This document shows positions 2,289 through 55,006 of a stretch of 64,000 nucleotides of DNA, one piece after another. The stretch is from Escherichia phage vB_EcoM_G2540-3. Positions within the stretch are counted from its first letter, which is position 1, and each line of letters begins with the position of its first letter. Location: sequence record MK327944.1; one strand, 5' to 3'. The notes under the pieces were generated by a model that was given only the letters and a program-made list of their open reading frames with translations, did not search any database and was not told the origin of the DNA. The position numbers and the translations under genes are program-made.

Positions 2289-3707
2289 TTATGGATAGGT
2301 ATAAATGATACCAGTTTCTAAAGCAGTTTTATGAATGATGTATCCATTGCGCGATTCTTGAACATCAACTTCTGGATAGTCTTTCATCATCTTCTGAAGA
2401 GTGTAACGATGCAGGTAGTATTTACTATCTGGATCTTCAGTTTTCCAATCTTTACCTTCTTCAGTCATTTTTTGGATTTCATCCATAACCCACCAACCGC
2501 ACCAGATATAAGCTGAGCTACGATGTGGAAGAGGATGAACATAAGGTAATTCACCTTCTGGTTCCGGAGCAACTTTATCAGTCACTTGAACTTGACCTGT
2601 GGCTTTAACTGTTTTACTATCATAGTCAGTTGCTGTAACGACAGCAGTAACTTCAATAGTTTGACTTCCAATAGATGAGGTATCAACAGTATATACGTTA
2701 GTTGACCCTTCCACAGGAGAAGAATCTTTCTTCCATGAGTAAGTAATTTGTGCTGCTTCAGGTGCGCCATTAACATTAGCAGTAAATGTAGCCGAAGCAT
2801 CTTGCTGAACATTAATAGAAGGAGGAGTCAATGTAACCTGTGGATTCATTGTCTTCTTATTAACTGTCAATGATACTTCATTGGAAGTAACTTCCTTTTC
2901 ATTATAATTTTCTGCAGTTACTTGGGCTACGCATTTAATTCTTTTTACTCCACTTGTAGTTGGAGTATAGTTAAATGTAGAGTTAGTTTCTCCACCAACT
3001 TGTGAATCATCTACATACCACTGATACGTAGCAGACGCTCCGTCAGGTTGAGAAGCTAATGCAGCAGTAAATTGAACCGGGGTTCCAATTACTCCAGCAG
3101 CAGGACTAGCAGGAGTTACTGCCAAGGTAGTTGTCTGTGTCTTTTTATTAACTGTCAATGATACTTCATTGGAAGTAACGCTCAGTGCATCATAATCTGT
3201 CGCAGTTACTTGAGCTACACACTTAATTTTTTTAACTCCGCTTGTAGTAGGAGTATAATTGAATGTAGCAGAAGTTGCTTCGCTCACAGGAGAACCGTCA
3301 ACGTACCATTGATACGTAGCAGATGCGCCCGATGGCTGTGAAGCTAAGGCAGCAGTAAATTCAACGGCTGTTCCGATTACTCCTTCTGGAGGACTATTAG
3401 GAGTTACAGCTAAAGTAGTTGTCTGTGTTTTATTTTGAACTGTAATAGTTGTACTAATTTCAGCTGTTTCAGCTTCAGAATCAGGAATAGTATTTGTTGC
3501 AACTACCTTAATAGTCTTTTGACCAGCAGGTCCTTTTAATACATAATCAAAAGTTGCTGCTGATCCTTCTTGGGGAGCATTATCTACGCTCCAAGCATAG
3601 GTAATAGTTCCACCTCCAGTTTCACCACTGGGTGTAGCAGTAAACTGCTTGGTTTCATCAATAACCCCTGTTGGTGTTTTAGGAGTTATATCAACTGTAA
3701 AAGCCAT
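2289..3707 (-). CDS. hoc: Highly immunogenic outer capsid protein Hoc with tandem Ig-like domains
   Basis: 472 aa with repeated Ig-like modules (…TYQWYVD…FNYTPTTSGVK.IKCVAQVTA…); position between rnlB and inh as in T4. Confidence 0.85.
   Translation of the reverse strand: MAFTVDITPKTPTGVIDETKQFTATPSGETGGGTITYAWSVDNAPQEGSAATFDYVLKGPAGQKTIKVVATNTIPDSEAETAEISTTITVQNKTQTTTLAVTPNSPPEGVIGTAVEFTAALASQPSGASATYQWYVDGSPVSEATSATFNYTPTTSGVKKIKCVAQVTATDYDALSVTSNEVSLTVNKKTQTTTLAVTPASPAAGVIGTPVQFTAALASQPDGASATYQWYVDDSQVGGETNSTFNYTPTTSGVKRIKCVAQVTAENYNEKEVTSNEVSLTVNKKTMNPQVTLTPPSINVQQDASATFTANVNGAPEAAQITYSWKKDSSPVEGSTNVYTVDTSSIGSQTIEVTAVVTATDYDSKTVKATGQVQVTDKVAPEPEGELPYVHPLPHRSSAYIWCGWWVMDEIQKMTEEGKDWKTEDPDSKYYLHRYTLQKMMKDYPEVDVQESRNGYIIHKTALETGIIYTYP
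2858..3433. repeat. Two tandem ~288-bp repeats (approx 85-90% identical) inside hoc encoding duplicated Ig-like domains
   Basis: Motif ttattaactgtcaatgatacttcattggaagtaac recurs at 2858 and 3146; protein shows two near-identical 96-aa modules. Confidence 0.8.
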
Positions 3708-16629: not shown

Positions 16630-18739
16630 TTATCCTTGAACGAACTTGTAAGGCATGTTTGCAATATCTATGCAAGACGCAATAATTCCAAGAGATGATT
16701 CTACTTTCTGTTTAACATTTGATGAAACAAATGATGCAAAGTCAACTCTATCTTCTATATCACCTGTCATTGTAACCAATTCACCAGTTTCCATTAAACG
16801 GTCACCGTCATAGATTACCGATTCGGTGAGTTCTTCTGTGGTCATAACTTCAGCTTGAATAAGCTTGTTGTTAGTTCTAACTGTTCCATCGTTGTAAGAT
16901 GCATCGGTTATTTTATTAACTTTGACCATTAATCCACGTGGCAAAATGACTTCCATTTCATTTGAAGGCGCTAAACTTCCACCGGGTAAAACAACATTGA
17001 CCTTATCAGCCCCAGTAATAACCCGCTAAACTTCCACCGGGTAAAACAACATTGACCTTATCAGCCCCAGTAATAACCCATCCAATTCCAACTAAATTAT
17101 CGCTAGAATTTACTAGTCCTTCATCAGTTTTATCAATAGAAACACTTAGACGCTTTTCGTCTGGTAAAACACCTATAGATGAATCAGTCATCCAAGTACC
17201 AAAAATATTTGGATATAATGATGTTGACACAAAGTTTCTAAAATAAAAAACTCGATTTTTTACCATTGCTTCATATATTGAAGGTAACATTCGTTGTGAA
17301 CGATACAAAGTAATACCTTTTGGTAATCGTTCACCATTTTTAAAGGCTGAATCTAAATTATCAATGGCTTGTTCTATTTCAGGTGCTGTTAAAATACTTG
17401 TACGCTCATCTGGATTATATAATCCCAAAAGAGCATTATTTATGTCTACATATCCTGAACCTACATATTCACGAATTCCGCGTTTTTGCGCTGGTGTGTA
17501 TTTAGATGAATCTTTATTTTCGACTATAGGATGTAATGACCATCCAGCGGTAAGAGCATATCCACGTAATTCTCTTCGAATAATCTTTGTTTTTATTGCA
17601 TTCCAAGAATTTTGCACTAACTCATTATTCGCAGCGTCTTGATTTAAATGCGAATGTCTGTTAATATTTCTTTCAAACCAGGCACCTTTATATTTTTCTA
17701 AAGTATCATCGACGATAGAAGCAATAGTTTCTAAAGTTTTTATTGAAGTAATAGATTCTTTTCGTAATTTTTCTAAAGCTTTATTTTTTATTTCTGCATT
17801 AATAATGGATTCTTTATCTTCAGGAATTATAGAAGCTTCTCTGAATGCCATCCCAGCTGTAACACTGCTAAGAGCATTCTCTAGTGCAAATCCTGAAGTA
17901 GAAATTACCGTTAATTCATTAGAATCAGAAATTAAAGGCGCGTCCGCTGGTTTATTTAATTCTGCCGCTGAAGCCTCAAATTTTTGAAACATCGGTGTTT
18001 CAAATCTAGAAGATTCCAATGACTGACTTTGTGCAATTGCTCTACGGGAAATTTTAACTTTAACGATTACAGCTTGGTCAGAACGTTTATCATTTTCTTG
18101 TGCAATAGATGCTGCAATTGCCTCATTTTTAGTTACTTGAGCTCCAGTATCTTTATTGATATAAACATCACCGACCTTCGATTCAACTTTAGTAAAGAGC
18201 TCGGTACTAATTTCCGGAACCCCTGGAATGTCTTCTAGTGATACATTTTTGCGATGTATAAGAATATATGCATACTTTTTATCATAATCCCAGAGTTCCT
18301 TAAGAAGGACGTATCTGCCACCTGAACGACTACGGATAAGTCTATCAGCAATAACTTGAATTTGTCGAGCTTGGCCAGCAGTTTTAGACTTAAGAATACG
18401 AAGCATACAAGCATCAATTTTATACTGACGCATTGTTTGCATTGCAACAGTAAAAACCGAATTGATATAATTAATTGGGCTTGGACCAAGACCTTTCAAT
18501 TTAGCAATTGAACCTTTAGCGGTTAATGTAAAAGGAACAATATGCATCATTTTATCGCCCATCTTTAAATCACGATTAGTATCACCTCCAGATGTATAGG
18601 TACATAAACGAAAGCCTGGTTGTTCAATTGCGTCATCAACATGAACTGAAAAAATTTGCGGTATTTTCTTCTTTGGATTTAAGTTTGTAATCGGAAGAGT
18701 AGTATCTTCGTCAAATAATTCTGTAATTAGTTCCATCAT
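16630..18739 (-). pseudogene. alt: ADP-ribosyltransferase Alt, interrupted by a 55-bp tandem duplication (577-aa N-part plus 108-aa C-part in shifted frame)
   Basis: Removing one 55-bp copy restores one continuous ~684-aa frame (…VVLPGGSLAPSNEMEVILPRG…), close to the 682 aa recalled for T4 Alt. Confidence 0.8.
16970..17079. repeat. Perfect 2 x 55-bp direct tandem repeat
   Basis: gctaaacttccaccgggtaaaacaacattgaccttatcagccccagtaataaccc occurs twice back to back (16970-17024 and 17025-17079). Confidence 0.9.
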
Positions 18740-50554: not shown

Positions 50555-53503
50555 ATGGCTACTTTAAAACAAATACAATTTAAAAGAAGCAAAACTGCAG
50601 GTCAACGTCCTGCTGCTTCAGTATTAGCCGAAGGTGAATTGGCTATAAACTTAAAAGATAAAACAATTTTCACAAAAGATGACTCAGGCAGTGTTATAGA
50701 ATTAGGTTTAAAATATGGAGGAACAATTGATGGTTCTTTAACTGTTAATGGAAATATAATTGGAAATTTAACAGGTAACGCTGCAACTGCAACGAAATTA
50801 AAAACAGCACGAAAAATTAATGGTATATCCTTTGATGGGTCAAAAGATATCACGCTAACTCCATCTGACATAAATGTCAATAGCACAACGTTTATAAAAA
50901 ATAATGGCGAATTACCTGTTGATGCTAATTTAGATACGTATGGGCCTGTTGAAGAATATCTTGGAGTTTGGTCGAAAGCAACTTCAACCAACGCTCAACC
51001 AGCAAATAAATTTCCAGAAGAAAATGCTGTAGGTGTGCTAGAAGTATTTGTGGCCGGTCAATTTGCTGGTACTCAGAGATATACAACTAGATACGGAAAT
51101 GTTTATATTCGTTCCTTGACTGCTACATGGAACGGAGTAAACGGTCCGTGGAGTGCGTGGCGAAATATTCAATCTGGTACTCGTCCACTGTCAACAACGA
51201 TTGATCTTAATGATCTAGGAGGCGCTGAACACCTTGGTTTGTGGCGAAATAGTTCAAATTCCATTGCTACCTTTGACAGAAATTTCCCAGAAGAAGGATC
51301 GTCCGCTCAAGGACTTTTAGAAGTATATGAAGGTGGAAACTATTCTCGCACACAGAGATATACGACCAGATTTGGTGTTGTTTATACTCGTTGTCTTGCT
51401 GCTGCGTGGGATGCTTCTGCGCCTAAATGGGGACCTTGGCAACAAGTCGGTAATGTCACACCGGCGACTTTCTATGACGGAGATCTGAATGATTTTAAAA
51501 CTCCTGGGTTATATAATATTTTAGGCACTGATGCCGTTATTAACTGTCCTACCGGTGAAGGTTTGCCGACTGTTATTGTTGGTTTGCTGGAAGTTAAACA
51601 GCGTGCTTCTGGCGGTGCTATTTTCCAAAAATTTACTACTGCCGGAACGGGTGCAACTACTCGCGATCGTATTTTTGAGCGTGCATATACTGGTGGTGTG
51701 TGGGGTGCATGGAACGAAGTATATACATCTTACTCTCTGCCAATTACTTTAGGTATGGGTGGTATTAAAACTCAATTAGCGGAGCTAGATTGGCAAACAT
51801 TTGATTTTGTTCCTGGTAGTATGTTTAGCGTTCCTTTGAACAAAATAAAGAACATGCCAGCTAATATGAATTGGGGCACGATTGACGGAAACTTAATTAT
51901 GTTTTCTGTTGGTCCTAGCGAGCACACCAGCACAGGACGTACTGTTCAGGTTTGGCGTGGAACTGTATCCCAGACAAACTATCGTTATTTTGTCGTTCGT
52001 GTGTTCGGTAATTCTGGAAATAGAACTTGCACAGTTCGCCGTGTTGTTCTTGAAGATGGATCACATACTTGGACTGCTCAACAAAACTTTAGGGGATTGT
52101 TGAATATCACTGCTGCTGTTAATCTTGGTGCTAATCAGAAAATTTCACTTGCTCCAGGAGCATATATTCAAGCCCCTGCTAGCGGTTCTGGTTCTAATAC
52201 TTACGCGAATCAGAATACTACCATTGCACCATTATATCAGGCCATTGACGATTCAAATAAAAACCAGTTTGCGCCAATTGTTAAACAGAAAAACACTGTA
52301 ACAAATATTACTATGGCTTCTGGTATGGATATTGCTAGTTCAGAATATCGTATCGTTGCTCAGGGTGATTTATCCGCTACTGGAACTACAGCCACTAAAT
52401 TAGCTACATGGCGTTTCTTGCCGTCTGGCCGATTCATGTCACAAAGCCGAGTTTATGCTGGCGCAGCATTCTTGAACACTGATGGTAACATTGCTGGTTC
52501 AATCTGGAAGAAATACAACGATGCAACCAATTTAGATGCTGCCTTGAATACTCGCCTAGGTAAAGGCGGTGATACGATGACAGGTCGGTTAACAATCAAT
52601 GCACCTAATGATTCTATCGTATTATCAACAACTGCTAGTAATTCTTTGCATATTCGCGGTGACATAGACGGGACTGGTAACTGGTATATTGGCAAGGGTG
52701 GTGCTGATAATTCGCTAGCATTTTATAGCTATGCTACTCAGGCGGCAGTACATATCACAAACAATGGTGAGATTTCGCTAAATCCACAAAATATCGCAAT
52801 GGTTAACGTTAACCGCGATCGTGTACACATTAACGGTTCTGGATGGATTGCTAGACAACCGGGTGATTGGGGCAACCAATGGCGAGTAGAAGCTCCATTA
52901 TTCGTCGATCATGGTTATGTTTCACAGGATTGTTATTATCCAATTATTAAAGGAAGAAGTGTAATCACCAATCAAGGGTTTGTAACTGCCGTCGATCTTG
53001 GTATTCGTCGTGTCCCTAACAATTGGGGGCAAGCAATTATTCGTGTTGGATCTGCAGAGGCATCGCCAGCGGCTGAACACCCTAACGCGGTATTTGAATT
53101 TCATTACGACGGTACTTTCTATTCTCCTGGTAATGGTAACTTTAACGATGTGTATATTCGTTCCGATGGTCGTCTTAAGATTAATAAAAAAGAGCTAGAA
53201 AACGGAGCACTTGAAAAAGTATGTCGACTGAAAGTTTATATTTACGATAAAGTTAAGTCTATTAAAGACCGTAGTGTTATTAAACGTGAAGTTGGTATTA
53301 TTGCTCAGGACCTTGAAAAGGAATTACCGGAAGCTGTATCTAAAGTTGAAGTTGATGGATCTGATGTTCTGACAATTTCTAACTCTACAGTGAATGCTCT
53401 TTTAATTAAGGCTATTCAGGAAATGAGTGAAGAAATTAAAGAATTGAAAACGCCTCTCTTTACTAAAATTGCTCGCAAAATTAGTAAATATTTTAAATTC
53501 TAA
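50555..53503 (+). CDS. 37: Long tail fibre distal subunit gp37 with C-terminal intramolecular-chaperone-like domain
   Basis: 982 aa; C-terminus …[36 protein letters not shown]… resembles autoproteolytic chaperone modules of phage fibres. Confidence 0.88.
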
Positions 53504-53539: not shown

Positions 53540-54319
53540 ATGGCAGTAGTTGGAGTTCCTGGCTGGATTGGAAGTTCAGCCGTAAATGAAACGGGTCAGC
53601 GCTGGATGAGTCAAGCAGCTGGTCAATTAAGATTGGGTGTTCCTTGCTGGATGAGTCAATTTGCAGGTCGCTCAAGAGAAATTATTCATACACTTGGAGC
53701 AGACCATAACTTCAATGGTCAATGGTTCCGAGATAGATGTTTTGAGGCAGGTAGTACACCTATAGTGTTTAATATCACTGGAGATTTAGTATCATATTCT
53801 AAAGATGTTCCTTTATTCTTCATGTACGGAGATACACCGAATGAATATGTTCAGTTGAATATACACGGCGTAACGATGTATGGACGTGGCGGTAATGGCG
53901 GTAGCAATAGTCCTGGTTCAGCTGGAGGTCATTGTATTCAAAACGATATTGGTGGGAGACTAAGAATTAATAATGGCGGAGCTATTGCTGGAGGCGGCGG
54001 CGGCGGCGGCGGCGGCAACAGGGGTAGACTATCCTTTGACGGCGGAGGCGGTCGTCCATTTGGCGCTGGTGGGTCTTCCTCTCATATGAGTGCTGGTGCA
54101 ACCAGCGGCACTATTTACGCTCCGGGTGCAGGATCTGTCGGTGAGGGGTCTCTTAGTGCATATACAGGCGGGAATGGCGGTGAAGTTGGCTCCGCAGGAG
54201 GTAGATGTAATACTCACGGTACCGGTACAGAATATGACGGCGGTGCTGCTGGTTATGCCGTCATAGGGTCTACACCGACATGGCAAAATGTTGGAGCAAT
54301 ATATGGTCCAAGAGTATAA
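53540..54319 (+). CDS. 38: Receptor-recognising adhesin gp38, T2-type, with glycine-rich motifs
   Basis: 259 aa; conserved N-terminus [43 protein letters not shown]…, C-terminal Gly-rich segments. Confidence 0.85.
53993..54016. repeat. (GGC)8 trinucleotide tract encoding poly-Gly inside gene 38
   Basis: ggcggcggcggcggcggcggcggc read directly. Confidence 0.85.
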
Positions 54320-54349: not shown

Positions 54350-55006
54350 ATGGCAGCACCTAGAATATCATTTTCGCCCTCTGATATTCTGTTTGGTGTT
54401 CTAGATCGCTTGTTCAAAGATAACGCTACCGGGAAGGTTCTTGCTTCCCGAGTAGCTGTCGTAATTCTTTTATTTATGATGGCGATTGTTTGGTATAGGG
54501 GAGATAGTTTCTTTGAGTACTATAAGCAATCAAAGTATGAAACATACAGTGAAATTATTGAAAAGGAAAGAAATGCACGCTTTGAATCTGTCGCCCTGGA
54601 ACAACTCCAGATAGTTCATATATCATCTGAGGCAGACTTTAGTGCGGTGTATTCTTTCCGCCCTAAAAACTTAAACTATTTTGTTGATATTATAGCATAT
54701 GAAGGAAAATTACCTTCAACAATAAGTGAAAAATCACTTGGAGGATATCCTGTTGATAAAACTATGGATGAATATACAGTTCATTTAAATGGACGTCATT
54801 ATTATTCCGACTCAAAATTTGCTTTTTTACCAACTAAAAAGCCTACTCCCGAAATAAACTACATGTACAGTTGTCCATATTTTAATTTGGATAATATCTA
54901 TGCTGGAACGATAACCATGTACTGGTATAGAAATGATCATATAAGTAATGACCGCCTTGAATCAATATGTGCTCAGGCGGCCAGAATATTAGGAAGGGCT
55001 AAATAA
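54350..55006 (+). CDS. t: Holin T
   Basis: 218 aa, N-terminal TM segment VAVVILLFMMAIVWY, large periplasmic domain. Confidence 0.92.
   Translation: MAAPRISFSPSDILFGVLDRLFKDNATGKVLASRVAVVILLFMMAIVWYRGDSFFEYYKQSKYETYSEIIEKERNARFESVALEQLQIVHISSEADFSAVYSFRPKNLNYFVDIIAYEGKLPSTISEKSLGGYPVDKTMDEYTVHLNGRHYYSDSKFAFLPTKKPTPEINYMYSCPYFNLDNIYAGTITMYWYRNDHISNDRLESICAQAARILGRAK

Follow-up and report, generated by a model that had tools for sequence, protein, structure and literature searches.

A close, structurally described counterpart of the adhesin considered here is gp38 of phage S16 (PDB entry 6F45; Dunne et al., 2018, as summarised in PMC6851490). In that summary 'helix 3; 151-GGGGGGGG-158' is singled out as a long polyglycine-II (PGII) helix, and the central glycine-rich motif (GRM) 3 is described as joined to its neighbours in a three-layer polyglycine sandwich by a saturating network of main-chain hydrogen bonds between helices (PMC6851490). 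The hypervariable segments (HVSs) of S16 gp38 form distal loops, which are the proposed binding sites (PMC6851490). In gp38 of phage PP01, loop B starts directly after the glycine run (PMC12892980).

Conserved GRMs also alternate with HVSs in gp38 of T6, Ox2 and M1 type (Drexler, 1989; Tetart, 1998; Trojet, 2011; PMC3157838), and these authors reported mosaic junctions at or near the GRMs. GRM-coding DNA has been published as a candidate site of recombination (PMC3157838, PMC12032242). No viable T6 phages were obtained with GRM2, 3 or 4 deleted (Trojet et al.; PMC3157838). A small adhesin-domain duplication in gp37 of T4 is cited as expanding the host range (Tetart et al., 1996, as cited in PMC3157838).

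The locus described here lies in a stretch of 64,000 nucleotides from Escherichia phage vB_EcoM_G2540-3 (record MK327944.1), referred to below as the window. Its gene 38 contains eight consecutive GGC codons, which the initial annotation had proposed as a likely slippage hotspot that could plausibly make loop spacing and host range vary rapidly. Repeat-driven variable surface genes, for example those of Haemophilus and Neisseria, are simple-sequence contingency loci. The tract resembles such loci, and triplet repeats that slip through hairpins, in being a perfect short tandem repeat in a host-interaction gene, in the hairpin capacity of GGC/CGG and in the in-frame loss of units in relatives. 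It differs from them in that its purity is not conserved, copy-number polymorphism is almost absent, expansions were not seen, no phenotype switch is known, and the encoded element is structural and buried.

The reading that we prefer, with a probability of roughly 0.8, is that the tract codes for the long GRM (PGII helix 3) of a T2/T6-type gp38, is constrained in length and slips rarely. The tract is thus an already known feature (GRM/PGII helix) of a known protein and an ordinary conserved structural motif.

The gp38 gene and the place of the tract in the protein

The gene and its neighbours were assigned as follows.

50555-53503, plus strand: gp37, the distal long-tail-fibre subunit (982 residues), to the tip of which gp38 attaches; Pfam Peptidase_S74 and gp37_trimer
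53540-54319, plus strand: gene 38, a T2/T6-type tail-fibre adhesin gp38 (259 residues); open reading frame, Pfam GP38 and Gp38_N, relatives in the PDB, exact-sequence look-up
54350-55006, plus strand: holin t, the downstream neighbour of gp38; Pfam Phage_holin_T (1.9e-117)

The open reading frame at 53540-54319 matched Pfam GP38 (PF05268; E = 2.8e-69, 233.7 bits) and Gp38_N (PF21721; E = 9.5e-21, 74 bits), against curated cut-offs of 25, which places the product among the gp38 adhesins and bears out the gene assignment of the initial annotation. The order gp37, gp38, holin t is the canonical 37-38-t and was the same in annotated relatives. An exact-sequence look-up returned an identical protein, QBO65661.1, deposited as the tail-fibre adhesin of Escherichia phage vB_EcoM_G2540-3. 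The window belongs to a T-even (Tequatrovirus) phage; among the genomes of the phage collection vB_EcoM_NBG2 is the closest, its gp38 gene being 99.7% identical. One Krischvirus, kvi, has a gp38 gene with approximately 90% DNA identity to this Tequatrovirus gene, which indicates that the adhesin has been exchanged between the two genera.

Alignments to T6, PP01 and S16 and a survey of the family showed conserved glycine-rich motifs alternating with hypervariable segments in the C-terminal half of gp38, as in the T6, Ox2 and M1 types. By homology to the S16 and PP01 proteins, gp38 would be a monomer that caps the gp37 trimer and binds an outer-membrane protein. The segments of this half that are discussed below are as follows.

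53990-54016, plus strand: nine glycine codons, GGA followed by (GGC)8 at 53993-54016, residues 151-159; sequence, Tandem Repeats Finder, S16 alignment
54017-54037, plus strand: NRGRLSF, a hypervariable segment, residues 160-166, the equivalent of PP01 loop B and the presumed receptor-contact loop; alignments, PMC12892980
54038-54064, plus strand: D-GGGG-RPFG, the next glycine-rich motif, residues 167-175, the downstream partner glycine run; sequence

Two solved structures were matched, those of PP01 gp38 (9v85, 1.3e-77) and S16 gp38 (6f45_D, 9e-53). The HMMER alignment to S16 is gap-free across the tract and pairs residue 151 of the query with S16 residue 151, so that a run of about eight glycines falls at the S16 151-158 position. 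Placed by alignment to S16 and PP01, residues 151-158 would form the central PGII helix 3 of the polyglycine sandwich, and Gly159 would be one further glycine leading into loop B. The statement of the initial annotation that the tract belongs to the glycine-rich scaffold of the receptor-binding domain is therefore upheld by the gap-free alignment to S16 helix 3. The tract is predicted to be a core strut and not a loop, because S16 residues 151-158 are helix 3 and PP01 loop B begins after the glycine run; the loop would be the NRGRLSF that follows. This corrects the view of the gp38 polyglycine runs as adjustable spacers: in the receptor-binding tip they make up the rigid core, and therefore the prediction or engineering of host range should target the loops and recombination at the glycine-coding DNA.

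The window protein shares with S16 gp38 the N-terminal attachment, beta-helix and polyglycine-sandwich architecture, the eight-glycine run at residues 151-158 and a spacing of 16 residues between the xIx anchor before the run and the GGGGGRPxG motif after it. They differ in that S16 has Phe159 where the window has a ninth glycine, and in the loop, which reads FRVGHTEA in S16 and NRGRLSF in the window. S16 targets Salmonella OmpC, whereas the loop class of the window is linked to OmpA through FL12, FL18 and FL20, phages of the same loop class that depend on OmpA (PMC12032242). By analogy with these three, the window phage would be expected to use OmpA. T6 gp38 is 82% identical to the window protein, with an identical 12-letter motif. 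The T6, Ox2 and M1 types differ from it in the loop after the tract, which has 12 residues in place of seven, and in that G167D is unique to the window.

This G167D substitution (codon GAC, 54038-54040) puts an aspartate in place of the first glycine of the next motif and occurred in one of the 237 gp38 sequences examined. It is also one of only two differences between the window and NBG2 over the whole gene. Lying next to loop B, it could be a host-range mutation or a passage mutation.

Composition and length of the glycine tract

The GGC codon was found exactly eight times at 53993-54016, as the initial annotation had noted, in frame with the gp38 reading frame and preceded by GGA at 53990-53992. 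Tandem Repeats Finder reported the array with period 3, 8.0 copies and 100% matches, as the sole period-3 array in the 64-kb window. A perfect tandem repeat inside a coding sequence, one property of a contingency locus, is thus present.

GGC makes up 15% of the glycine codons in the long open reading frames of the window, giving P of approximately 3e-7 for eight given codons all being GGC; with the 24% found for gp38 glycine codons outside the tract, P is approximately 1e-5. The bias is shared by relatives. In 19 distinct nine-codon tracts GGC and GGT account for 65 and 25% of the codons, respectively, and GGA and GGG nearly vanish from the interior, where GGC reaches 73%, GGT 26% and GGA 2%. 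Elsewhere in these genes the glycine codons divide into 22% GGC, 47% GGT, 22% GGA and 9% GGG. Under the tract bias a run of at least eight GGC codons is expected by chance in about 5% of lineages, and it was found in two of the 19 tract versions (the window and FL12). The glycine run and the GGC/GGT bias are real and beyond chance, and the perfect purity lies within drift. The near-exclusion of GGA and GGG from the interior possibly avoids GGAGG and homopolymers of G.

Of the 780 bases of the gene, two differ between NBG2 and the window, and one of these gives a synonymous GGT at tract codon 4. Because the tracts of the two phages differ by this single base, the perfect (GGC)8 is a transient synonymous state, one base away from the nearest relative.

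The third positions do not all change alike. Codons 157-158 (54008-54013), the seventh and eighth glycine codons of the tract, are GGC GGC in nearly all of 21 aligned sequences, with parsimony steps of 1 and 0, and codons 152-156 change 3-7 times.

One further reading frame lies over this part of the gene.

54029-54286, minus strand: antisense open reading frame of 85 codons with a TTG start, not a gene; stops in relatives, no Pfam match

It carries internal stops in eight of 15 sequences of the same length, has lost its start codon in others and gave no Pfam match at E <= 1. It was rejected as a gene on these grounds, in agreement with the initial annotation, which had called it an artefact of the region, and is a by-product of glycine- and alanine-rich coding on the opposite strand.

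For the length of the tract, 246 protein sequences were retrieved, comprising 120 cluster representatives and the members of nine clusters. Exactly nine glycines were present in 172 of the 176 distinct proteins of the nine-glycine classes, and more than nine in none. At the DNA level 26 relatives of these classes were compared, including Tequatrovirus and Krischvirus phages and metagenomic contigs; all 26 have nine glycine codons, in 19 different spellings with GGC, GGT and GGA. Thirteen of the relatives' loci came from a scan of viral sequences and 16 from a scan of metagenomes, most DNA comparisons being made with GenBank phage records; a scan of genome contigs for gp38 relatives found none. 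Across the family at large, glycine almost always occupies the first eight positions that follow the xIx anchor, with serine or alanine at the ends. Judged by this pattern, the classes came to differ in 'run length' mostly by substitution and probably not by insertion or deletion.

In the best 60 phage records the gp38 gene is 780 or 783 nt long, HP3.2 excepted, and the difference of 3 nt tracks the other loop class. With HP3.2 set aside, the 59 best records of cultured phages contained no gene-length change of the kind expected from an insertion or deletion in the tract. HP3.2 and HP3.1 are a directed-evolution pair; relative to HP3.1, HP3.2 has an 11-nt frameshifting deletion at gp38 nt 150-160, upstream of the tract, together with G497A, and the tract is unchanged in both phages.

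In HP3.2 the annotated gp38 coding sequence begins at an internal start. For the parent phage HP3, the RefSeq protein (P0170) shifts frame inside the polyglycine tract, and the GenBank record of HP3 is marked UNVERIFIED; judged from the RefSeq protein, this frameshift is probably a sequencing error at the repeat.

Probable slippage and codon turnover

The four exceptions to the nine-glycine rule are in-frame contractions. All lie in very regular tracts of period 3 or 6, and the open reading frames are otherwise intact.

L051 (protein P0156): eight glycines, (GGC)7GGT; internal in a 94.5-kb contig, with an identical protein on a second contig
L052 (P0225): seven glycines, repeat not pure; inside a 49-kb contig
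L049 (P0106): six glycines, (GGTGGC)-type; fills a 1.1-kb contig
L048 (P0079): four glycines, (GGTGGC)-type; at the end of a 60.7-kb contig

All four come from assembly contigs, and no named cultured phage is among them. As their reading frames are intact and two lie well inside long contigs, some shortened helices may be tolerated. The tract of L051, a Logan contig of ERR10879143, is one unit shorter than the (GGC)8GGT of FL12. L051 is 97.3% identical to Krischvirus kvi (L044), in which the tract is (GGTGGC)4GGT, so that the L051 tract is fully re-patterned as well as one unit shorter. The kvi record annotates its tract as a repeat_region.

That errors of sequencing or assembly in a low-complexity region produced the perfect repeat of the window is extremely improbable. 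This reading draws on the protein from the UNVERIFIED HP3 record that is frameshifted inside the homologous tract, and on two contraction variants, one of which lies at the edge of its contig and the other on a contig of 1.1 kb. Against an artefact in the window, the exact protein was deposited independently for phage G2540-3, NBG2, T4_ev240 and FL12 have nearly the same tract at the same length, and the reading frame is intact to the conserved C-terminus.

As single-stranded DNA the tract folds into an imperfect hairpin of -13.5 kcal/mol (z = -2.9). A role for the tract in mRNA structure was also considered and was dropped, RNA folding around it being no better than in shuffled sequences (z = -0.72). 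Third-position diversity is 0.347 in the tract and 0.192 at other fourfold sites (p = 0.01). Parsimony steps counted on neighbour-joining trees are 3.6 at the tract third positions and 1.8 at the other fourfold sites (p of approximately 0.01, nine tract sites). A literature search on slippage in gp38 found nothing relevant. Taken from these comparisons of sequences, replication slippage probably occurs in the tract and its products do not persist. The hotspot proposal therefore survives in part: slippage is plausible from the hairpin, the four contractions and an approximately twofold synonymous turnover, but the tract slips rarely and leaves no lasting products. The initial annotation had also named an absence of length polymorphism among relatives as the observation that would speak against it; with 172 of 176 proteins at nine glycines this absence is nearly complete, the four contractions being the remainder.

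The stronger form of the proposal, a contingency-type hotspot in which in-frame length changes alter the presentation of the loop and supply adaptive host-range variants, is unlikely. It draws on a perfect eight-unit triplet array with hairpin potential that directly precedes the receptor loop, and on contractions by one, two, three and five glycines in relatives, all in highly regular tracts. The copy-number polymorphism of a contingency locus was not found, however, as the nine-glycine length is kept in all but the four variants from assembly contigs and there are no expansions. The purity of the repeat is likewise not kept across relatives, as would be expected of a selected contingency locus: the 26 DNA sequences have 19 spellings, only two of which contain at least eight consecutive GGC codons. 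Receptor class follows the sequence of the loop and not the number of glycines, the GRM deletions of T6 were reported as non-viable (PMC3157838) and the directed-evolution pair HP3.1/HP3.2 kept the tract unchanged. The claim that the tract is a rapid source of variation in loop spacing and host range is not sustained: it encodes a core helix and not a loop, its length is nearly constant, its purity is not conserved and the best cultured phages show no tract-indel length change.

A further reading takes the tract as a length-constrained microsatellite in concerted turnover, by compensated slippage or short-patch gene conversion, with pure GGC as a functionless product; gene conversion between co-infecting phages, or between glycine runs, would homogenise and re-pattern the codons. 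We regard this reading as possible but doubtful. It is favoured by the number of spellings and their higher-order periodicity, with (GGCGGCGGT)3 in three relatives (L040-L042), (GGTGGC)4GGT in kvi and (GGC)8 in the window and FL12, by the twofold turnover of third positions over background, and by the complete re-patterning of L051 relative to kvi. The 27-nt tract also holds one of the two differences from NBG2 and two of the 11 differences from T4_ev240. For most of the transitions, however, point mutation at relaxed sites is about equally parsimonious with compensated slippage. The excess is modest (p of approximately 0.01, nine sites), the parsimony counts assume a tree, which recombination violates, and the near-invariant GGC at codons 157-158 is not predicted by simple slippage.

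A length-clamped microsatellite might also be imagined in which slippage or short-patch conversion re-patterns the codons and releases occasional in-frame contractions. Lineages with a perfect array would then transiently have a raised rate of helix-length variants, some of which might reposition loop B and alter receptor use. We consider this improbable.

Under the preferred reading of a length-constrained coding sequence for helix 3, the helix would hold up the receptor-binding loops within the three-layer PGII sandwich, and its length and glycine content would be under strong purifying selection, as the hydrogen-bond network and the pattern of conservation suggest. The third codon positions would be free within the GGC/GGT bias, (GGC)8 being one transient spelling. 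A perfect 24-nt GGC array would very probably mispair or form a hairpin, giving variants with a glycine more or fewer at low frequency, and such length variants would almost always be removed. Slippage at the tract is supported because rare contractions exist in relatives. Diversification of the locus would instead come from homologous exchange whose junctions lie at the conserved glycine-coding DNA or shortly before it, and from unequal exchange between neighbouring glycine runs, by which a whole loop module would be duplicated or deleted.

Recombination, module duplication and other repeats of the window

In pairwise maximum-chi-square scans 101 of 178 significant breakpoints fell at gene nt 450-479, which is the tract. 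Between the window and IME340 the divergence is 0.7% upstream of the tract and 9.9% downstream, with the switch in the interval of gene nt 378-481; between the window and FL12 it is 13.3% upstream and 6.6% downstream. As the discordance runs in both directions, the clustering of breakpoints is not due to rate heterogeneity alone. It is partly confounded, since the conserved N-terminal block ends at the tract and limits where a crossover can be placed. Subject to this confounding, the mosaic junctions coincide with conserved glycine-coding DNA, as expected of GRM-mediated recombination and in agreement with the published idea and with the junctions reported for the T6, Ox2 and M1 types.

Glycine runs also serve as the direct repeats at which loops are duplicated and deleted, in relatives only. 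A T6-like gp38 gene (L001, IMGVR_UViG_2974787500_000001) contains at 778-879 a perfect tandem duplication of a 51-nt unit encoding YYSPFSQMRLTF+GGGGG, that is, a loop and the next glycine run, flanked by identical GGCGGTGGCGGCGGG. The reciprocal deletion was found in L050/P0027, P0023, P0031 and P0118, which read AIAGGGG(GG)RPFG. The L001 duplication represents unequal exchange between the long glycine tract and the next glycine run. The window tract and its own downstream glycine run share only 8 nt of exact identity.

The domain duplication in T4 gp37 is comparable, in that the duplication in L001 and the deletion in L050 and the others also involve a module, here a loop plus a glycine run, bounded by short glycine-codon direct repeats; it differs in that the events described here are in gp38 of relatives and not in the window. 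In the sequences compared, the locus diversifies visibly in two ways, by recombination with junctions in the tract region or a little upstream, and by the duplication or deletion of whole loop modules between glycine runs.

For therapeutic T-even phage genomes, perfect GGC arrays are the likeliest places for rare in-frame deletions and for sequencing or assembly errors.

Two other repeats were observed in the window. At 16969-17079 a perfect 55-nt tandem duplication splits an Alt-like ADP-ribosyltransferase gene on the minus strand into open reading frames at 17006-18739 (577 residues) and 16630-16956 (108 residues), both of which match Pfam ADPrib_exo_Tox. A 351-nt query over this duplication maps to 296 nt in all 12 of the best phage matches listed, which are thus without it. 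The split gene is either a real pseudogene in this phage or an assembly artefact. At 2850-3443 a 288-nt unit is present in 2.1 copies with 79% identity, inside a minus-strand open reading frame (2289-3707, 472 residues) that has PKD and Ig-like domains; the pattern resembles the duplication of an Ig domain in a Hoc-like decoration protein.
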